From a phage: a stretch of 64,000 bases of DNA. The translations under genes were made by a program, and so were the position numbers. The stretch's first letter is position 1; every line of letters starts with the position of its first letter. Shown in pieces: positions 3,948 to 61,344 of this stretch. The DNA is taken from the sequence record PZ386967.1, one strand, 5' to 3'. The notes under the pieces are model-generated. The model had not been told where the DNA came from. It was given only the letters and a program-made list of their open reading frames with translations, and did no database searches.

Positions 3948-4273
3948 TGAAATGTAAAATCTTGCTCTTGTTGGTACTGATAGCCGGATGTGTAAACGCC
4001 GCGCCACCGTCCAAACTGAACACATGTGTGGCATGGATGGAGACGTATCAGCAGTTCCACCCAGATGACAAAGACACATCTATCCTCCTGTCTGACTTTG
4101 AGGGAGAGCTGAAGCGCCTTGATCTGTTCAGTGTTGATCAGATAGAGAATGCGCTGGATCTTCCCATGATGCTGACTGCGGCTGATAACAGTCCACAAAC
4201 GAAGAAAGACCTGATGTATTGTCGGGGGATTGCCCAGGACTTTGTCGGATTTCAAAATAAAGTTTCGGGTTAA
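3944..4273 (+). CDS. Putative lipoprotein
   Basis: N-terminus MMKCKILLLLVLIAGC has a lipobox-like LIAGC. Confidence 0.5.
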   Translation: MMKCKILLLLVLIAGCVNAAPPSKLNTCVAWMETYQQFHPDDKDTSILLSDFEGELKRLDLFSVDQIENALDLPMMLTAADNSPQTKKDLMYCRGIAQDFVGFQNKVSG

Positions 4274-4309
4274 AATTTAGCCCTACATTGTGAACTGAAG
4301 GAATACACT

Positions 4310-5179
4310 GTGATGCTCCTGACCAAAACAATCGCTGCGGCGATTATCGAAAAGAATAAGGCTTTTGCCCCCAACGTAGCCAAAGTTATGTTGGTACACG
4401 AAGACGCTCGCGTGATCTTCGCCGAGAAGTTCGAGATGGGCGCGAAGTTCTGGTATGCCGACAACTTACGTGAGAGCAAACTTCAGGGTATCATCCACAA
4501 ACTGACTCTGGTCGCCAAGCGTAATGACCAGGGTGACTGGGTCGGCGTTTCTGACTTCAGTACGAAGATCACCCCAAAGGCTCCGCTTTCTCGTCAAGAG
4601 CGCATTCTGGAAGCCCAGGAAAAGCTGCGTGCGGCTCGGAGTACCACAAAGGCGAAGCCAGATGCAAGCCCTGTCATCAAGCCAGCGGTTGTTCCTAAGT
4701 CCAAATACCTCCCGCCCGTGAGTCAAAAGTCTGTGGAGCAATTGGTTGAGAAGCGCAAGGGTGACGTTGTGATGAAGTCTGACTCTTCAGTGGAGTCGTT
4801 CAAGCCGGATCCAGCAGAAGTACAGGCGCTGGCAGAAAAGGTAAAGAATTCACAATTCATTTCCCTGCGCGAACTTGAACCGCCTACTCGCCGTCGTATC
4901 GCCAACGAGCTGTTTGTGTCGTTCAGGTCGGATGGCAAGATCGTCCTGTGCAAAGCCCTGCGCGATGCAATCCCTTGGACAACTCTGAACATGATGGTCA
5001 CTCGCGACTTCAAGCGTTTTGGTATCATGCAAGGCAAGGACTACAACGTCAACCAGAGCGGGACTTATGTTAATCGCGCCATGTGTGACAAACTGACCTT
5101 CCCAGAAGACACCGGAACGATCCGTGTCGTTCTGAATTGGGATGACAAGCTGAACATGTATGTTGGCGATTTCCAATAA
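4310..5179 (+). CDS. Hypothetical protein
   Basis: 289 aa ORF. Confidence 0.5.
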   Translation: MMLLTKTIAAAIIEKNKAFAPNVAKVMLVHEDARVIFAEKFEMGAKFWYADNLRESKLQGIIHKLTLVAKRNDQGDWVGVSDFSTKITPKAPLSRQERILEAQEKLRAARSTTKAKPDASPVIKPAVVPKSKYLPPVSQKSVEQLVEKRKGDVVMKSDSSVESFKPDPAEVQALAEKVKNSQFISLRELEPPTRRRIANELFVSFRSDGKIVLCKALRDAIPWTTLNMMVTRDFKRFGIMQGKDYNVNQSGTYVNRAMCDKLTFPEDTGTIRVVLNWDDKLNMYVGDFQ

Positions 5180-5235
5180 TCAATAACCTCGGGCGGCTTA
5201 TCATAAAGCTGCCCTTTCATTTGAGAGACTATATC

Positions 5236-5898
5236 ATGGAAAAACTTTATTCTATTATCGTCGGTCCTGATCCTGACGGATTATTCTTCGCCTCGTTGTC
5301 TTATATTGCCCACGCCCGTATCGGTAGCTATTACGCATATTGCACACGTGGCCACGACGGTTCCAATATCCTCCATTATAGCCGCCTGAACGATTTCCTG
5401 GCACTTCAACCAGAAGATGTTGTGCTGGCGCGTCGCGTGTTCATCGACTTCAACGCGATGCACAACAACGAAATCGACGCTCGCTACCATGCCATGCGTT
5501 CTATGGACGGGGGAGATTGCATTTATCGTATCGACCATTTTAGTGAGTTTACCGAATGTATTGATTGGTTTATCTCTGATAAAGTGATGGGTGAAAGAAT
5601 CGTCACAACTCCGTGGGCACATGCGGAACAACTTCGTGTGTCTACCGATGCGTACAAAGAAGTCGACAATCTGTGCAACAAGTTCCGCATCTCGGTGACC
5701 TGTAATCAAGACCTGGGCGAAGAGATACAATGGACAGCTGAGTCTCCTCATTTCAGTGGCCTGGTGATGACGGCCGAAACCCGTTCCCGTGCTGTTGTCC
5801 AGTTAGTACTCTGGGCGTTCTACCAGCGCACCCCGTTCTCGTACATGGGGCAGAAAGAGATTGATGAACTCCTGAAGTCTCACGCGGTGGAGGTGTAA
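5236..5898 (+). CDS. Hypothetical protein
   Basis: Start trimmed to MEKLY after GAGAGACTATATC leader; hairpin terminator upstream. Confidence 0.5.
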   Translation: MEKLYSIIVGPDPDGLFFASLSYIAHARIGSYYAYCTRGHDGSNILHYSRLNDFLALQPEDVVLARRVFIDFNAMHNNEIDARYHAMRSMDGGDCIYRIDHFSEFTECIDWFISDKVMGERIVTTPWAHAEQLRVSTDAYKEVDNLCNKFRISVTCNQDLGEEIQWTAESPHFSGLVMTAETRSRAVVQLVLWAFYQRTPFSYMGQKEIDELLKSHAVEV

Positions 5899-5899
5899 T

Positions 5900-6178
5900 A
5901 TGGCTGGCGTATGGTGTGATGTCTTGCTGGTTCGTTACAGCGTAAATGGGTGTGTCCAAGTGCGTTCCGCCTTCTATCCAGTACCGTTCTCTTCCGGTGG
6001 CCTGACGGTTCAGCGAGTTCTCGATATTGAGGCAGAACTGAACAAAAAGTCTTTTGGTGTACAAGTCCTGGGGTACGATCTTCTGAATGAAATGATGGTT
6101 GAAGAAGACAAAGTTGAGACTGTCATTGGTCGTCAGGAGATGGAATCGTTAATCTCCAAATCGGAGGTCAAATCATGA
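5900..6178 (+). CDS. Hypothetical protein
   Basis: ORF tightly packed after upstream gene. Confidence 0.4.
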   Translation: MAGVWCDVLLVRYSVNGCVQVRSAFYPVPFSSGGLTVQRVLDIEAELNKKSFGVQVLGYDLLNEMMVEEDKVETVIGRQEMESLISKSEVKS

Positions 6179-6426
6179 GTCCCAACATGGCAATAATCTG
6201 GGTTGGTGAATCGTCAATGCGTTGTCCTCACAAGACGATCACCTTCTTGGACGATGAGCGCCTGGCCGAACAACGGGTTGAAGTCCGCGAAATGCAGGTT
6301 TCTTCAAAGGTGGTGAACGTTCCTGTGACTAATATTCAGACTTTTAAGCCTTGCGTCAGAGTGATTTGTGAACGCTGTGGATGTTATGGCACGATGACGA
6401 CTGAAGACGTGGCGAAAGGCTATTAA
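6175..6426 (+). CDS. Hypothetical Cys-containing small protein
   Basis: ORF with overlapping stop/start. Confidence 0.4.
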   Translation: MSPNMAIIWVGESSMRCPHKTITFLDDERLAEQRVEVREMQVSSKVVNVPVTNIQTFKPCVRVICERCGCYGTMTTEDVAKGY

Positions 6427-6516
6427 TTCCGCTTTATTCAATAAAATTTGTTAGTTAAACTGTAGTCCTCTTGTAGTGAACATGAAAGTAAACATTAACC
6501 CAACGGAGAAATCCAG

Positions 6517-6795
6517 ATGAATCGTACTGAATTTGTTGCCCACATTGCTTCGACCCAGAACATCACCAAAGGCGAAGCGGAGAAAGTAGTGGCATCCTTT
6601 ATCAACGGTGTTAAGACTGCAGTTGCTGCAGGCGCATCTGTACAGCTGGTCGGCTTCGGTGCGTTCGAAGTGAAACACCAAGAAGCGCGTGAAGGCCGCA
6701 ACCCTCTGGACGGCCAGACCATTCAGATCGCGGCGAAAAACGTTGTGAAATTCAAAGTGGGCGAAGGTCTGAAGAACGCTGCCAACGGCAAGTAA
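6517..6795 (+). CDS. HU/IHF-family histone-like DNA-binding protein
   Basis: 92 aa; MNRTEFVAHIA, GFGAFEV, REGRNP, KFKVGEGLK are typical HU signatures. Confidence 0.85.
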   Translation: MNRTEFVAHIASTQNITKGEAEKVVASFINGVKTAVAAGASVQLVGFGAFEVKHQEAREGRNPLDGQTIQIAAKNVVKFKVGEGLKNAANGK

Positions 6796-6842
6796 TTCTA
6801 TCTGACGCGCGGCCAGGCTCTGCAATACAGGGCATGGCAAAG

Positions 6843-6876
6843 AGAAAGCCGGAGCATTGTACTCCGGCTTTTTCGT
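6843..6876 (+). terminator. Rho-independent terminator after HU gene
   Basis: AAGCCGGAG-cattgtact-CCGGCTTTTT; coordinates approximate. Confidence 0.5.
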
Positions 6877-6923
6877 TCTTGGGGATCGGGTAAACTATAG
6901 GCGAATCCCATAGGAGGAAGAAA

Positions 6924-8642
6924 GTGACAGCATTCAACCAATATACCAAGGCGCTTGACGGCGTCGGACCAGTCAGCATAGACCGCATCAAGTCTCTTGC
7001 CACTGAGTTCTTCCCGTATGACACCGCCAACCCCGGCCAGATGGAATGCATCGTTGAAGCCATTGATGCCCTTGTGAATAAGAAATTCAAACACGTGATC
7101 ATCGAGGCTCCGACTGGTGTAGGTAAATCCCTCATCGGCACTACCATCCATAATGTGCTTCGCCATTTGGTTCTTGAGCACAACCCGTATGGTCAGTTCC
7201 GCACGTCTATCACGACGCCGACCAAAGGTTTACAGGATCAGTATGCAGCAGAGAAAGCCGTGGCGATAGACATCCTGAAGGGCAAGAAGAACTACCGTTG
7301 CCACATCAGTCCCGACCTATACTACAACGCCATTCAGTGCCGTATGGCATGCCGTGATGGCCACTGTAGTAAGAATCGTTGCCCATATGTTCAGGCGCGT
7401 CGACAGTGGACCGACGTCTCCTCCCTGCGCTGCACCAACGCCGCCATGATGGTGGAGATGTGTACGACGATTTGTATGAAGCCGGAAAACCGTGCCGATA
7501 TGCTGATCCTTGACGAGTGTCATAAGATGCCCTCTACGCTCCTAGAGCATACTATCATGGAATACAACATAAAGGCTGTGGAAGGGTTGCTTACGATCCC
7601 CGAGGGAGTGCCTATCGTGGAGACCATCAAGGATATCATCATCCGCACAGAGAACTATGAATTGGGCAAGCTGTATTCCCTGTCTGGTGAGATGCATGCG
7701 ATATTTGATGAACTACACGGCAAGGTTGAAGCCCTGTTGGAAACTCTTGAAGAACTGGTAGAGGATGAGCGCCTGACTGAAGCCCAGGTGATGAAGCTGT
7801 CTGATATTATTGATAATCTTCACAACCTCAGTGACTACTGCGGTATCATGGGGCAGACCAACGCCAGCACTTTCATCGTACAGGAGAAGGACAAGGGTAT
7901 GATTCAGTTCAAGCCTGTCATCGCCTCTGATGTATCCCAGTTCGGTCTGTTCCGCAAGGGTGACTACCACGTTCACATGTCGGCGACCATCTGCGGGATT
8001 GACTCGTACGCCCGGTCACTGGGTATCCGCGAGGGTGAGTACCACAAGATACAGATCGGCAACCCTATCCCGATTGAGAACCGGAAAGTCAACTACATGC
8101 CCATCATGAAGATGACAGCGAACATGGGTGACTACGAGATGAAGAAGCTGGCTGAATACGTGGATGAAATTATCGCGTTCCACCCTGGGCAGTCTGGCAT
8201 CATTCACACAGTCAGTTATGACCGCGCCCTGGCTCTACAAAAGTTCAGTAAGTACCGGAATATGATTCACGTTCCTCGTACTCGTAAGGCTCTGATGGAC
8301 ATCATGGAAAACGCGTTCAGGACGAAGACGCCTTGTGTCATCGCCAGTCCGGCCATGGAAGAGGGGTATGACTTCAAAGGCGATTATAGTCGATTTCAGA
8401 TCTTGATCAAGGTGCCATACGATTACCTTGGTGATCCTCTGGTGGCCCACGTCAACAGTGTGGACCCATCGGCGTACTTCAGGATGGCGGTACTGCGTAT
8501 CGTTCAGATGTGTGGGCGTTCGGTCAGGGGTGTGAATGACTGGGCTGCGACGTACATCCTTGATTCTTCTTTTGAATCACTGATGATGCGCAACCCAGAG
8601 TTCTTCCCCGCTTGGTTCACTGATGCCGTGTTTGAGGTTTAG
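6924..8642 (+). CDS. SF2 DNA helicase, XPD/DinG (Rad3)-like with Cys cluster between Walker A and DECH box
   Basis: GTG start after AGGAGG; APTGVGKS Walker A, Cys-rich CHISPD..CRMACRDGHC..CPY insert, LILDECH box. Confidence 0.65.
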   Translation: MTAFNQYTKALDGVGPVSIDRIKSLATEFFPYDTANPGQMECIVEAIDALVNKKFKHVIIEAPTGVGKSLIGTTIHNVLRHLVLEHNPYGQFRTSITTPTKGLQDQYAAEKAVAIDILKGKKNYRCHISPDLYYNAIQCRMACRDGHCSKNRCPYVQARRQWTDVSSLRCTNAAMMVEMCTTICMKPENRADMLILDECHKMPSTLLEHTIMEYNIKAVEGLLTIPEGVPIVETIKDIIIRTENYELGKLYSLSGEMHAIFDELHGKVEALLETLEELVEDERLTEAQVMKLSDIIDNLHNLSDYCGIMGQTNASTFIVQEKDKGMIQFKPVIASDVSQFGLFRKGDYHVHMSATICGIDSYARSLGIREGEYHKIQIGNPIPIENRKVNYMPIMKMTANMGDYEMKKLAEYVDEIIAFHPGQSGIIHTVSYDRALALQKFSKYRNMIHVPRTRKALMDIMENAFRTKTPCVIASPAMEEGYDFKGDYSRFQILIKVPYDYLGDPLVAHVNSVDPSAYFRMAVLRIVQMCGRSVRGVNDWAATYILDSSFESLMMRNPEFFPAWFTDAVFEV

Positions 8643-9406
8643 TAACCCGCAACGAAGGACAGATGGCACTTGACATTCGGTTCCAACGACGTCACAGAAA
8701 CCGTCATATTGTCCGTATCTTGGCTGAAGTCAATGGTGGCGAGAGGTTTGGTCTGAATATGGTTGTAAACACTGTAGATCAGATCCTCGCCACGATACCC
8801 TACCTTCCCGTCGGTGTCTTGCCAATGACCCAGTGTCTCATCGTAGACATGCACTCTGAACTCGATCATATGGAAGAGTGCCTTGGGGATGTCCTTGAGT
8901 ACGCTGGTGCCAACCACGGGAATCTCTATGCTGGAATCATTGGAGTTCCCTTCATATACCGAAGCCCATGCAAAGGTGGGATCTCCCCCAGCAACAGGGG
9001 TTCGCTTCCAGTATTGGAATTCTGGGTTGCCTGAAGCGTTCTTCTGAAGTAGAATGACCTCACCACCTTTGAAGTTCGAAGTATCGATGTCGCCTCGCTG
9101 AAGTTCATCTGCTGGAGATCCAATAAATTTCCAGCCTTCGCGATCCAGTAAAGACTTATAATAGTCGGTGAACACGTTGCTGTCTTCTGCATCGTTGATG
9201 GCATCTTTGAGACCTTGGCCTGTCACCATCTCGTTGAGCTTCAACCACATGTTCTTGACAGCAGACGCTGCTGCGACTTGTCCAGCAGTCCCACCTGCAG
9301 CATAATCATAGATGATATCTTCTGACTTGATAGCATCATAGATAGAGAGGAGCAATTGCTCAATCTGCGGGGCGGTGAGACTGAAACGATATGCGCGGGG
9401 TGTCAT
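8639..9406 (-). CDS. Hypothetical late protein, possibly virion-associated
   Basis: Start trimmed to MTPRAY with GGAG-type RBS; TATAAATA late-promoter octamer on the minus strand about 35 nt upstream. Confidence 0.5.
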   Translation of the reverse strand: MTPRAYRFSLTAPQIEQLLLSIYDAIKSEDIIYDYAAGGTAGQVAAASAVKNMWLKLNEMVTGQGLKDAINDAEDSNVFTDYYKSLLDREGWKFIGSPADELQRGDIDTSNFKGGEVILLQKNASGNPEFQYWKRTPVAGGDPTFAWASVYEGNSNDSSIEIPVVGTSVLKDIPKALFHMIEFRVHVYDETLGHWQDTDGKVGYRGEDLIYSVYNHIQTKPLATIDFSQDTDNMTVSVTSLEPNVKCHLSFVAGY

Positions 9407-41360: not shown

Positions 41361-41434
41361 TTTAAGTTCAGAAACTGTTCAAAAGATGAAGGGGCTGCTA
41401 TAATAGCAGCTCCTTTTGTTTATTGGAGCAGTTT

Positions 41435-42094
41435 ATGTCCTACTCCCTGAAGGGGTTGATGAAGCGCCCCGTCCACACATTCTTTAAACCACCCGTCGTA
41501 AAGGGGATCTACCCAGCACGAGGGCAAATCTACTACGTCAAAGGCTCCAATGGTAGCGGTAAATCCACTGTGCCGTCTCAGCTGGCGGAGAGGGATCCTC
41601 AGGCGTATGTCGTGACCCATAATGGCAAGGTCATGCTGACTGTCTGTCCTTCGTTCAACGTGGTCTGTATCGGTAAATATGACAAGTCGAAGTCCAAGGG
41701 GGTTGATTCCCTGAAGGACACTGAGCAGATGTTGTTCGCGTTGTCTATTGCTGACCAACCAGAATACTTGAAATATGATGTGATTTTCGAAGGTATCATT
41801 CCATCCACATTATTGAGTTCTTGGATCCCCCGTCTGACACGCCCACCACGTGAATTGGTTGTGCTCTTTATGGACACTCCTCTTGAAACGTGTATCACCC
41901 GCGTTAAATCACGTAACGGCGGTGTGGACTTCAATGAAAGTCTGGTGGTCGAGAAGTGGGAGAGAGTTCATGACCATCGTCAACGACATAAAGACTTGTT
42001 CCCTACGGTAGCTGCGGGTATGATGAAGTCTCACGGCCTAACGGTAGACCAGGCTGTGATGGCATTCCTCTGTCGTGATTTTGGGAGTATCTGA
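41435..42094 (+). CDS. P-loop kinase of unknown substrate (candidate nucleotide or DNA-base kinase)
   Basis: Start trimmed to MSYSL; Walker A GSNGSGKST; first gene of a translationally coupled nucleotide-metabolism operon. Confidence 0.5.
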   Translation: MSYSLKGLMKRPVHTFFKPPVVKGIYPARGQIYYVKGSNGSGKSTVPSQLAERDPQAYVVTHNGKVMLTVCPSFNVVCIGKYDKSKSKGVDSLKDTEQMLFALSIADQPEYLKYDVIFEGIIPSTLLSSWIPRLTRPPRELVVLFMDTPLETCITRVKSRNGGVDFNESLVVEKWERVHDHRQRHKDLFPTVAAGMMKSHGLTVDQAVMAFLCRDFGSI

Positions 42095-43140
42095 TGGAAA
42101 TCAAAGCAATTAACAACAATGACATGCTGAAGCAGGCTGTCTTGGCTATCCGTGAATTCGGGATCGAATCTGATCCTGGTAATGCTGAAATCAATACTGA
42201 TAGCACCCGCTTCCTTGATGGTGTGACTATCACTGTTTCCGATATTCGTGACCGCTGGCTCTCCGTTGAAGGTCGCAACTCATCGGCTATCGCTGCCATC
42301 GGCGAGACCTTCTGGGTGTTGTCAGGTCGCAACGACATAAAGTTCCTGTCACGCGTATTGCCTCGCGCTGCTAACTTTTCGGATGATGGGGTAACATGGC
42401 GAGCTGCTTATGGTCCGCGTCTGTACGCCCATGGCCAGCTGGATAGCGTTATCAACCGCCTGCGCAAGAACCCAAACACTCGTCAGGCGTACCTCACCAT
42501 CTATGACCCGGCTCTAGATTCGGATGCTGGTCTGGCGAAGTTCAGCGAGAGCGGCGAAGCAAAGACTAAAGACATGGTGTGTAACCTGGCTCTGTTGTTC
42601 GCCATCGTTGAAGGTCGTCTGAACCTGACGGTCATCAATCGCTCACAGGATGTTCTGTGGGGGATGAGTTCAATCAACTTCATTGAGTTCTCTATTCTTC
42701 AGGAAGTGATTGCTCGGGTGTTAGATGTTGATGTCGGTCAGTACAAGCTCTTCTCCAACAATCTTCATTACTACAACAATGAAGTCAGCCAGAAGCAGCT
42801 GGGAAAGATCACGAAGGACACCAAAGTAGAAGCTGGGTTCATCAACACCATGATTCACTTCACGAACGTGACCAACCAGAACCATATCCGCAATCTGTTC
42901 ACTGGTGTGCTTCATCACTGTGATATCGGTAGCCCGTGGGAAACTGTGGTTGCTCACCTGAAGGAATACGATGCGGATCGCGGCCTGATTGTACAGATGG
43001 CGTACTGTCTGCACTGCAAACTGAACGAAAAGCTCATTAACCTGGACCTGATTCAGGATCATGGCTTGAACACCGCGCTCACCCATTCTCCGGTTGACCG
43101 CAAGATCGTTGATCCTAAGTTCCTGGAAGGTGTAGTATGA
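42094..43140 (+). CDS. Thymidylate-synthase-family pyrimidine hydroxymethylase-like enzyme (dUMP or dCMP hydroxymethylase candidate)
   Basis: Catalytic-Cys region DMVCNLALLF and NRSQDVLWG align to T4 gp42 (FMCTNT, MRSNDVVFG) and TS (PCH, QRSCDVFLG); lacks canonical TS WNP and PCH motifs; about 100 aa C-terminal extension. Confidence 0.6.
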   Translation: MEIKAINNNDMLKQAVLAIREFGIESDPGNAEINTDSTRFLDGVTITVSDIRDRWLSVEGRNSSAIAAIGETFWVLSGRNDIKFLSRVLPRAANFSDDGVTWRAAYGPRLYAHGQLDSVINRLRKNPNTRQAYLTIYDPALDSDAGLAKFSESGEAKTKDMVCNLALLFAIVEGRLNLTVINRSQDVLWGMSSINFIEFSILQEVIARVLDVDVGQYKLFSNNLHYYNNEVSQKQLGKITKDTKVEAGFINTMIHFTNVTNQNHIRNLFTGVLHHCDIGSPWETVVAHLKEYDADRGLIVQMAYCLHCKLNEKLINLDLIQDHGLNTALTHSPVDRKIVDPKFLEGVV

Positions 43141-43706
43141 TGTACCCAAATCTTGAATTCTTTACGGGGCGCAAACGCTCCGGTAAGGACTTCTGTTTGG
43201 AGTCCCTCATCAGCTATCACCAACTACAGGGTGATATGGACATCCAGCGCCTTTCGTTCTCAGATGAACTGCGCCGTGTGGCCAACTACATCTACCCATG
43301 GCTGCCAGCGGAGGTAGAGGATGCCGTGAAGGACGTTCCTTACGTGCACCCTGATAACCCCAAGGGCTTAACTCCACGGCAGATCTGGCTTCATCTGGGC
43401 AGCGATACGGGCTTGCGTTACGTACAGCCTGATCTGTTCCTGGCATTCTTCAAGCGCTTCCAGCTTCCTCTGGTAGAGCAGAACCCCCACGTCCATTATA
43501 TCGTGAGTGATCTGCGTACCCCTCAGGAATATGAATGGGCGCTGAGTACGAAATGTCCTATCACCCGTATTTCAAAGGCCGACCGTGCTGGTATCATAGA
43601 GGACGATATAGAGGCTTTCATTGACCAAATGAAAGTGGACTACGAATTCCTCAATCCATTTGATGGTTGGGAACCGTTCGTTAAATTCTACGGAGAACGT
43701 AAATGA
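43137..43706 (+). CDS. 1: Deoxynucleoside monophosphate kinase, gp1-like
   Basis: FTGRKRSGKDF matches T4 gp1 LSGVKRSGKDT; VSDLRTPQEYE resembles gp1 VPDTRQDHEMD. Confidence 0.65.
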   Translation: MMYPNLEFFTGRKRSGKDFCLESLISYHQLQGDMDIQRLSFSDELRRVANYIYPWLPAEVEDAVKDVPYVHPDNPKGLTPRQIWLHLGSDTGLRYVQPDLFLAFFKRFQLPLVEQNPHVHYIVSDLRTPQEYEWALSTKCPITRISKADRAGIIEDDIEAFIDQMKVDYEFLNPFDGWEPFVKFYGERK

Positions 43707-44257
43707 TCACAGCAGGACATATCAAAAGCCTGCTCGAACTCCAAAAGGCCACCAACGTGGCCTATTTTGGGGAAGAGTGGAAGAATGTATGGAGTCAGAA
43801 CGCAGTCATCAACTCTATCTATCGTGAGTGGGCAGAGTTCCTTGATGAAACCACCCGTGACTGGAAGGTCTATGGCAACGACATCAGGTTTGACCATACG
43901 AACGCAGTTTATGAACTGGTGGACGTGGTACACTTCATGTTGTGCTTCATCCTTGTGGACCGCACCAAAGGTGAGATCGAAGAAGAATTTGAAGTCCTTA
44001 GCAATCGCGAATTCACCCCATCTGCTTTGGGTGTTGTAGGGCATCGCAATGTTACGTACCGCCTTGGGCAATTCATGAACGATCCTTGCGTTGAGACTCT
44101 CATGTTCTTCCTGTCGTCTGCGTGTTCTTATATGGAGATCGACATTGAGACTTACATGCTGGCACACAAACGCAAGAACGATCGCAATCGTCTGCGTGCT
44201 TCTGGTGGTGTGGATTACGACAAGTCCGCAGAAACCCCTCTGACCCTGGAGTTCTAA
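43703..44257 (+). CDS. 56: All-alpha NTP pyrophosphatase, gp56 dCTPase/dUTPase-like
   Basis: YELVDVVHFMLCF matches T4 gp56 FELVDIFHFVLNMF. Confidence 0.6.
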   Translation: MITAGHIKSLLELQKATNVAYFGEEWKNVWSQNAVINSIYREWAEFLDETTRDWKVYGNDIRFDHTNAVYELVDVVHFMLCFILVDRTKGEIEEEFEVLSNREFTPSALGVVGHRNVTYRLGQFMNDPCVETLMFFLSSACSYMEIDIETYMLAHKRKNDRNRLRASGGVDYDKSAETPLTLEF

Positions 44258-60834: not shown

Positions 60835-61344
60835 TTATTTGTCAGGGTTCACTAAAACAGGGGTGGATACCAGTTCGCCGTTCTTCACAGAATGCTGGAC
60901 TACAACAAACTGATCGACCATGCGATATACTTCAATTCCAGCAGCCAGCATGTCAATAATGCCGTCTATGATACGATATGGTCGGTCATAGAACACTTTA
61001 GCGATCTTGCCACTGTCGATAATACGACGGGTGCACTCTGGGCATGGACTATGAGTGACAAACATCACTAGGCCACAACAGTCTTCAGTGTGCTGGGGGA
61101 GTTTGCTCAGAGCATTCTCCTCGGCGTGGATAACACCCACCGATACCAGTTGACCGTCTACTTCCTTCTCACAGACATTAGGAGCGCCAGGAGCAGTCCC
61201 GTTCCAACCGATAGACAGGGGCTGGTCAACACGCGGGTCAACGATAACACAGCCGACCTTCAGGCGCTGGGCATAGCTGGACAGGGCGTATGCATGAGCC
61301 GAGCGCATATGCGCAAATAACATACGGGGTTTGATAGCCATCAC
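60835..61344 (-). CDS. cd: dCMP deaminase
   Basis: Zinc-binding HAEENAL and SPCPEC motifs. Confidence 0.8.
   Translation of the reverse strand: MMAIKPRMLFAHMRSAHAYALSSYAQRLKVGCVIVDPRVDQPLSIGWNGTAPGAPNVCEKEVDGQLVSVGVIHAEENALSKLPQHTEDCCGLVMFVTHSPCPECTRRIIDSGKIAKVFYDRPYRIIDGIIDMLAAGIEVYRMVDQFVVVQHSVKNGELVSTPVLVNPDK

Follow-up and report, generated by a model that had tools for sequence, protein, structure and literature searches.

HU-family proteins contact DNA in the minor groove and generally prefer DNA that is flexible or distorted. In TF1, the HU-family protein encoded by phage SPO1, residue F61 and the C-terminal tail contribute to site selectivity and to an extended wrapping of the DNA, as worked out in the Geiduschek and Grove laboratories, and the preference of the protein for hmU is ascribed to hmU-A steps being flexible. 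An increase of DNA flexibility by hmU has been described (PMC4797264). SPO1 synthesizes its DNA via 5-hmdUMP, which is provided by a hydroxymethylase of the thymidylate synthase type, and its hmU substitution is full. In contrast, the virion DNA of ViI-like phages, the group to which the relatives of the phage analyzed here belong, carries 5-(2-aminoethoxy)methyl-dU (5-NeOmdU) at ~40% of thymines, and this base is formed post-replicatively from 5-hmdU in DNA (PMC5889632, PMC11721090). The thymidine modification points into the major groove (PMC5889632). For the HU/TF1 homologues of ViI-like phages, our literature search returned annotation tables alone, with no DNA-binding study or link to the modification found. 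As an example, orf127 of phage Ag3 was listed in 2011 as a PF00216 protein of 9.7 kDa and pI 9.5 (PMC3121705 supplement). In GenBank, the orthologues are labeled “DNA-binding protein”, “DNA-binding protein HU”, “HU-beta”, “transcription factor” or “transcription factor 1”. The gene described below is an ordinary one, already annotated in public records, and its identity is not new.

The analysis was carried out on a 64,000-nt stretch of phage DNA (record PZ386967.1), hereafter called the window. Over its entire length, the region 5000-9000 is 98% identical to Escherichia phage vB_EcoM-RPN242, a member of the Aglimvirinae within the Ackermannviridae, while Shigella phage Ag3 and Salmonella phage SKML-39 reach 92-93%. 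Judged by these identities, the window derives from an Aglimvirinae/Agtrevirus-like, ViI-like phage of the Ackermannviridae. It corresponds approximately to 13.7-77.7 kb of the RPN242 genome in reversed orientation, and its gene content is a T4-like mix, in which genes for replication, recombination and nucleotide metabolism occur together with baseplate genes. Scans of the window against Rfam and for tRNAs were both empty. The coordinates of the features discussed here are collected in Table 1.

Table 1. Features of the HU locus and of the thymine-modification module in the window
Feature	Coordinates	Strand	Remarks
Upstream block CGCTTTATTCAATA with intergenic TTCAATA box	6430..6443	+	Probable promoter element, 14 nt
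-10-like element TAAACTGTA	6456..6464	+	13 nt 3' of the box; putative function
Shine-Dalgarno GGAG	6505..6508	+	8 nt 5' of the ATG; kept in 5/5 genera
HU-family (DNABII) DNA-bending protein gene	6517..6795	+	92 aa; PF00216, fold, motifs
Intrinsic terminator	6842..6880	+	13-bp GC-rich hairpin, then T-tract
Second -10-like element TAAACTATA	6891..6899	+	Precedes the helicase gene
DinG/Rad3-like helicase	6924..8642	+	Helicase_C_2, ResIII, DEAD; phrog_2488, E 1.3e-259
5-hmdU DNA kinase	41423..42094	+	PF18748 HMUDK_HMUD1, E 1.7e-108
Thymidylate-synthase-family dUMP hydroxymethyltransferase homologue, divergent	42094..43140	+	PF00303, E 1.1e-15
dNMP kinase-like protein + dUTPase	43137..44257	+	Completes the nucleotide-supply module
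dCMP deaminase	60835..61344	-	

An earlier note on this DNA had claimed a clear HU/IHF-family protein at this locus, and the claim is confirmed: the gene encodes a genuine HU-family (DNABII) protein. Its frame starts with ATG, includes the stop codon and has the coordinates given in the earlier note. For PF00216 (Bac_DNA_binding), the product scores 100.6 bits (cut-off 22.4; E 5.7e-29) in a match that spans residues 1-90 of 90, and it also matches phrog_379, “DNA binding protein” (E 4.2e-35). In a sequence search of solved PDB chains, the best single-domain match was B. anthracis HU (3rhi, E 2.4e-19) and the top multi-domain match a single-chain IHF, with TF1 also matched (E 4e-11). A six-frame HMM scan of the ORFs of the 64 kb window retrieved exactly one HU ORF. 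The AlphaFold monomer model, for which 46 homologues were the input, has a mean pLDDT of 95 and the HU fold, with its elements in the HU order (helices 3-14 and 18-37, five strands, helix 83-90), and the top Foldseek matches in the PDB are all HU or IHF (TM 0.78-0.88). Both the arm motif R58-x-G-R61-N-P63 and the core motif GFGAF (G46-F47-G48-A49-F50) are intact, and they are invariant or nearly so among homologues. Across genera, the gene has a dN/dS of 0.10-0.23, indicating purifying selection. Given this selection and the family match of the plus-strand frame, a longer antisense ORF (6451..6840, minus strand) was dismissed as spurious. At the level of NCBIfam equivalogs, the protein scored below the cut-offs for HU-beta (69.6 versus 157 bits) and HU-alpha (67.3 versus 162), as well as for those of IHF (62-71 versus 111-120 overall; IHF-alpha 71.4 versus 111, IHF-beta 65.7 versus 115).

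With bacterial HU proteins (B. anthracis 3rhi, Anabaena 1p71, E. coli HU alpha and beta), the window protein has in common the 90-92 aa class, the fold and a full-length PF00216 match, as well as the R58-x-G-R61-N-P63 arm with its intercalating proline, the GFGxF core, the charge and the pI. Identity amounts to 40/41% with E. coli HU alpha/beta, 45% with B. anthracis HU and 53% with HUs of Flavobacteriia. The window protein has Q55, L64 and E83, whereas bacterial HU usually has R55, Q64 and K83; compared with E. coli HU, R55 and K83 are thus changed to Q and E. The fold and arm motif are found in IHF alpha and beta as well, at an identity of 28-30%; however, IHF consists of two subunits, while the window encodes one HU and no partner subunit for it, and this HU does not have the longer C-terminus of IHF alpha. 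In a neighbor-joining tree, the Ackermannviridae HUs form a clade of their own (bootstrap 82-100), apart from bacterial HUs and from TF1. In the protein catalog, the next sequences beyond the phage clade (at least 72% identity) are Bacteroidota HUs at 50-53%, and among genomes scanned at one per species, the closest cellular HUs were those of Lachnospiraceae and Bacteroidia, at 53-56%. A recent capture of a host HU was rejected, since E. coli HU is 40-41% identical and these searches found no cellular relative above 56%; on such comparisons, the gene represents an old phage lineage rather than one lately copied from the HU of the enterobacterial host.

The reading that we favor, with a probability of about 0.5, is that of a canonical HU-type core gene of the Ackermannviridae, whose product would be synthesized ahead of the late phase and serve phage DNA transactions as an architectural cofactor. 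The comparison with bacterial HU also bears on a quite unlikely alternative, in which the phage protein would bind the host nucleoid, or pair with host HU alpha/beta in mixed dimers, and thereby disturb chromosome structure, transcription or repair of the host to the benefit of the phage. The canonical scaffold speaks for it and, since the dimer-core motif GFGAF is intact, mixed dimers with host HU are conceivable. However, an identity to host HU of just 40-41% makes heterodimers uncertain, and the gene has a conserved position in a replication/recombination block and not among host-takeover genes. The charge of the protein was considered as well. With a net charge of +4 and a pI of 9.7, the values are those of E. 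coli HU, so no adaptation to a cationic DNA modification is visible, and the idea of a charge adapted to 5-NeOmdU DNA was discarded. It is also conceivable, although highly improbable, that the protein is packaged with the genome, where it would condense the cationic hypermodified DNA and so help to package it, or protect it on injection. A small, basic (pI 9.7), DNA-binding protein would suit such a role, and some viruses package HU-like proteins, with ASFV pA104R being among the structural matches of our model. On the other hand, the supplements on the virion proteins of phages Ag3 and Sajous1 list the HU in annotation and operon tables and not in the mass-spectrometry tables (text search).

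TF1 (PDB 1wtu, 1exe) is, like the window protein, a phage-encoded member of the HU family and, like SPO1, the window phage is predicted to supply 5-hmdUMP for its DNA with a hydroxymethylase of the thymidylate synthase type. For the comparison we used TF1, HU-alpha and HU-beta sequences that exactly match PDB 1wtu, 1mul and 2o97_B. The earlier note had, in effect, offered TF1 as the model for this protein, with an architectural protein tuned to modified DNA as the outcome, and the proposal is supported in part: an HU-family architectural protein is encoded together with a dUMP hydroxymethylase pathway, but no feature of the sequence points to such tuning. TF1 and the window protein are 38% identical, which is below the identity to several bacterial HUs; residue 61 is F in TF1 and R in the window HU, and the core motif is GFLNI in the former and GFGAF in the latter. 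TF1 has 99 aa with a C-terminal tail of nine residues, whereas the window HU, with 92 aa, ends two residues past the HU core. The two proteins do not cluster in the neighbor-joining tree, and TF1 was not among the first 50 structural matches of the model (Foldseek, PDB). E83 is, however, common to both. Based on these alignments, the window HU would be related to TF1 at the family level alone.

The functional version of the TF1 comparison is nevertheless worth weighing, namely that the protein selectively binds modified phage DNA (nascent hmU and/or mature 5-NeOmdU) over host DNA, and thereby serves genome organization or transcription control, in the manner of TF1 in SPO1. We regard this as possible but rather doubtful. 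The differences at residue 61 and in the core motif, the missing tail, the low identity, the separate position in the tree and the absence of TF1 from the top 50 structural matches all count against it, as does a charge that is the same as in host HU. In addition, the modification lies in the major groove, whereas HU contacts the minor groove. In its favor, hmU makes DNA more flexible, and a hydroxymethylase and a 5-hmdU kinase are encoded in the same genome.

Within the modification module, the hydroxymethyltransferase homologue shares 42% identity (E 2e-50) with PhiW-14 gp231, a protein whose annotation notes a similarity to the dUMP hydroxymethylase of SPO1. Of the two proteins encoded next, the dNMP kinase-like one matches a deoxynucleoside monophosphate kinase family (phrog_139, E 1.2e-47) and the dUTPase matches PF08761 dUTPase_2 (E 4.4e-09). 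A kinase directly adjoining the hydroxymethylase is the arrangement described for these phages (PMC5889632). The module is that of ViI-like thymidine hypermodification and, by analogy with the studied relatives, its product would be a hypermodified cationic base and not plain hmU; hmU in such phages would be just a transient intermediate of replication. This bears on two points of the earlier note. The assumption that hmU-DNA, as in SPO1, is the modified DNA to be bound finds no support, since the studied close relatives carry 5-NeOmdU at ~40% of thymines (PMC5889632, PMC11721090). The description of the HU gene as lying alongside the hydroxymethylase operon stands in part: both are in the window, but 34.6 kb separate the kinase/hydroxymethylase cluster from the HU gene, and the two belong to different transcription units.

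The co-occurrence of the HU gene with the hydroxymethylase pathway, also put forward in the earlier note, holds well beyond the window. Homologues at at least 60% identity were found in ~270 phage records for HU and in ~267 for the 5-hmdU kinase, and both genes are essentially universal in the Ackermannviridae; these, however, represent a single lineage. This joint presence across essentially all of the family speaks for a protein selective for modified DNA, and HU genes are also found in further thymine-modifying phages. TF1 homologues were found in SPO1, SP8 and CP-51 (55%) as well as in SP-10 (36%, tblastn), a hypermodifying phage, and an HU of the Vibrio ViI-like type is kept in ~61 Vibrio phage records. 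As a phage HU recurs in four thymine-modifying groups, a role connected with the modification is conceivable. Two kinds of observation weigh against it. Two phages that hypermodify thymine, the M6-like Pseudomonas phage LKO4 and Delftia phage PhiW-14, gave no HU ORF in whole-genome six-frame HMM scans, with best E values of 0.3 and 0.96, respectively. Conversely, HU homologues are common among phages, with 569 records that include ~94 Ralstonia, 30 Flavobacterium and 13 Burkholderia phages as well as SPbeta-like ones, and these Ralstonia, Flavobacterium, Burkholderia and SPbeta groups are missing from the list of kinase matches. Given the phages that modify without HU and the groups that have HU without a kinase match, the association is neither necessary nor specific and, with very few independent lineages, is suggestive at best.

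The HU of the Vibrio ViI-like phages is highly divergent. In K446, a ~157-kb myovirus of this type (OZ196324, 132876..133148), it is a member of the HU family (PF00216, E 2.4e-12), and K446 also has the kinase/hydroxymethylase pair as well as the block of helicase, RNase H, sigma factor, gp47 and gp46 genes. However, the protein is only 29% identical to the window HU and lacks the GFG and RNP motifs, and its gene adjoins a tRNA cluster, whereas the window HU gene is 5' of the helicase gene. It is probably a separate acquisition or a case of extreme divergence, and its position away from the helicase implies that the link between HU and helicase is not universal.

Within the Ackermannviridae, the genomic context is conserved. 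The order of HU followed by helicase is found in Agtrevirus-like, Limestonevirus, Kuttervirus, Taipeivirus and Miltonvirus phages, and beyond the helicase lie genes for RNase H, a gp55-type late sigma factor and the gp47/gp46 recombination nuclease. The locus was aligned across five genera, represented by the window, Limestonevirus Coodle, Kuttervirus ECML-4, Taipeivirus KpS110 and Miltonvirus phiMAM1. The upstream block is invariant in 5/5 genera, despite differing upstream genes and a phiMAM1 protein at 51% identity, and TAAnCTGTA, which covers the first -10-like element, is invariant across the alignment as well. The terminator hairpin is kept across genera with compensatory changes, and the fold of 6790-6890 reaches -41.9 kcal/mol (z = -4.35), with 0/200 shuffles being as good. 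In front of the helicase gene, GGGTAAACTATA is kept in four genera and partly in phiMAM1. A generic sigma-70 and terminator scan of 4000-9000 made no call at the HU gene and missed the terminator; the -10-like element is skipped by the sigma-70 scan because a good -35 is absent. Other readings of the upstream region were discarded. The spacing between the MotA box and the -10 in T4 middle promoters is ~12 nt, so CGCTTTA, which lies 19 nt from the -10, does not fit as a MotA box; the extended pattern GCTTTW-N17-20-TAAACT has two occurrences in the window, in the upstream regions of HU and helicase alone. Similarly, TTCAATAAAATTT does not fit the consensus of an IHF site.

Since our literature search found no transcriptome or other expression data for Ackermannviridae, the timing of HU expression rests on motif analogy. 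For the promoter survey, the RPN242 annotation was transferred to the window and all upstream gaps were inspected. The TTCAATA/TATTGAA box recurs 5' of TATAAT-like -10 elements, often inside GC-rich hairpins, and 15 of the 24 TTCAATA copies in the window fall within the ~13% that is non-coding. It precedes the genes for ligase, gp32 and nrdA, several small ORFs and the HU gene, and was not found 5' of structural genes in the upstream gaps of the mapped annotation. Structural genes bear TATAAATA-like late motifs, and no late-type TATAAATA promoter is present in the HU upstream region. With a box common to DNA-metabolism genes and without a late promoter, expression of the HU gene before the late phase is plausible; the earlier note had called it an early gene, which goes further than the sequence does. 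The distance from box to -10 varies between 9 and 16 nt among these promoters, and the -10 of the HU gene (TAAACT) is weak, so we leave the architecture and type of the promoter undefined.

These observations on timing bear on each of the alternatives. In RPN242, the 98%-identical relative, the kinase/hydroxymethylase genes are also preceded by TTCAATA, while the box before the kinase gene in the window itself is TTCAAAA, one mismatch away. A promoter box common to the HU and modification genes in a near-identical relative speaks for selective binding of modified DNA, as the HU protein and hmU-DNA would then coexist. A plausible pre-late expression would also suit an action on the host nucleoid, which other phages target early, for instance through T4 MotB (PMC6070864). 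For a virion protein, in turn, the lack of a late-type promoter 5' of the HU gene is unfavorable.

Taking together the family, fold, motifs, conservation, synteny and regulatory sequence elements observed for the gene, we infer the following for dimerization, timing, target and role of the protein as a general architectural cofactor. The gene would be transcribed from its own promoter-like element (TTCAATA box and TAAACT) into a short transcript, ~6468-6880, that ends at the strong terminator. Since DNA-metabolism genes have the same class of box in front of them, synthesis of the protein probably precedes the late phase. It would most likely be a homodimer, whose two beta-arms wrap the minor groove of the DNA and kink it via the conserved proline of R58-x-G-R61-N-P63. 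Present in abundance on the replicating phage DNA, it may be an architectural cofactor that aids replication and recombination, and perhaps late transcription or packaging, acting beside its partner gene, the DinG-like helicase, and the RNase H/gp55/gp47/gp46 module. Any preference for the modified phage DNA would then stem from the general liking of HU for flexible or distorted DNA and not from specializations of the TF1 type.

Whether the protein discriminates modified DNA matters in either case. If it does, it would be a second, independently evolved case beside TF1, and would provide a handle on how a partial, sequence-selective thymidine hypermodification is organized. If it does not, phage HUs would simply be generic cofactors of replication and recombination. 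A more far-reaching version, which we consider unlikely, is that the Ackermannviridae HU converged on a TF1-like selectivity through other residues (e.g., Q55, L64 and E83) and preferentially coats nascent hmU-DNA. The protein would in that case set phage DNA apart from that of the host, and might influence the choice of the ~40% of thymines that become 5-NeOmdU. Were this true, the recurrent and apparently independent HU genes of SPO1-like phages, SP-10, Ackermannviridae and Vibrio ViI-like phages would represent a coupling of hmU-derived DNA to dedicated architectural proteins. A possible parallel to such convergence is found in dinoflagellates, in which hmU-rich DNA occurs together with HU-like proteins (PMC6723414).

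Across the whole window, the combination GCTTTW-N17-20-TAAACT is confined to the promoter of the HU gene, which encodes the HU-family DNA-bending protein, and a site before its downstream neighbour, the DinG/Rad3-like helicase gene, where a conserved element is found (see table), against a chance expectation of 0.01. This restriction suggests that both genes may share an unusual promoter type devoid of a -35 element. The HU-helicase cassette is constant between genera, while the genes upstream of HU vary, with superinfection-exclusion and spanin-like genes being found there in Kuttervirus and Taipeivirus and, in the window, a DUF7425 protein ORF.

A second element, the TTCAATA box (or its complement, TATTGAA), is strongly enriched in non-coding DNA, which holds 15 of its 24 copies in the window. 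TATAAT-like -10 elements follow the box 9-16 nt downstream and are often contained in GC-rich hairpins, as is the case 5' of the 5-hmdU DNA kinase gene. The box stands in front of DNA-metabolism genes and not of structural ones. T4-type phages have promoter/stem-loop cassettes, which the arrangement of TTCAATA box and hairpin-embedded -10 element in the window resembles.

Features identified in the window and in a Vibrio phage
Feature	Record	Position (strand)	Details
Conserved element before helicase gene	window	6891..6899 (also 6867..6896)	GGGTAAACTATA; directly after HU terminator
Intergenic TTCAATA or complement	window	609, 968, 3193, 6437, 16336, 16368, 22522, 22542, 40409, 47612, 48384, 48430, 50160, 51809, 61702	
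-10 element in GC-rich hairpin	window	41395-41411	GCTGCTATAATAGCAGC; 5' of kinase gene
5-hmdU DNA kinase	window	41423..42094	PF18748, E 1.7e-108
DUF7425 protein ORF	window	5900..6178	PF24200, E 1.6e-47; two genes upstream of HU
Divergent HU-family protein	Vibrio phage K446, OZ196324	132876..133148 (-)	PF00216, E 2.4e-12

The HU-family protein of Vibrio ViI-like phages is highly divergent, lacking both GFG and the RNP motif (…AGIKISTKDVAERAYPIPGKPGET…), and is conserved in ~61 Vibrio phage records. Its gene adjoins a tRNA cluster and is not located upstream of a DinG-like helicase. In a neighbour-joining tree, the protein grouped loosely with TF1, the HU-family transcription factor of Bacillus phage SPO1, a placement probably caused by long-branch attraction. 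Dinoflagellates, which acquired bacterial HU-like proteins and in whose nuclear DNA 5-hmU replaces up to 70% of thymine, are a further case of hmU-rich DNA coinciding with such proteins (PMC6723414). Also listed among the Ackermannviridae core genes is a second "putative histone-like protein", unrelated to HU (PMC3121705 supplement; PMC10892097 core-genome table). This protein (170 aa in Shigella phage Ag3, orf009; Vi01 gene product 4) is encoded outside the window, near topoisomerase II genes.

The 5-hmdU DNA kinase of the window falls within phrog_800, labelled "terminase small subunit", and many GenBank phage records name the enzyme "terminase small subunit", "baseplate hub" or "thymidylate kinase"; these labels are propagated misannotation.

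In a blastn comparison of the window with the 98% identical Escherichia phage vB_EcoM-RPN242 (OL656110), no match was obtained for seven genes of the latter, all small (gp17, gp18, gp38, gp78, gp79, gp108 and the HNH endonuclease gp35), and part of gp86 diverges. Nearly identical phages differ here by the presence or absence of homing-endonuclease-type genes and small accessory genes.
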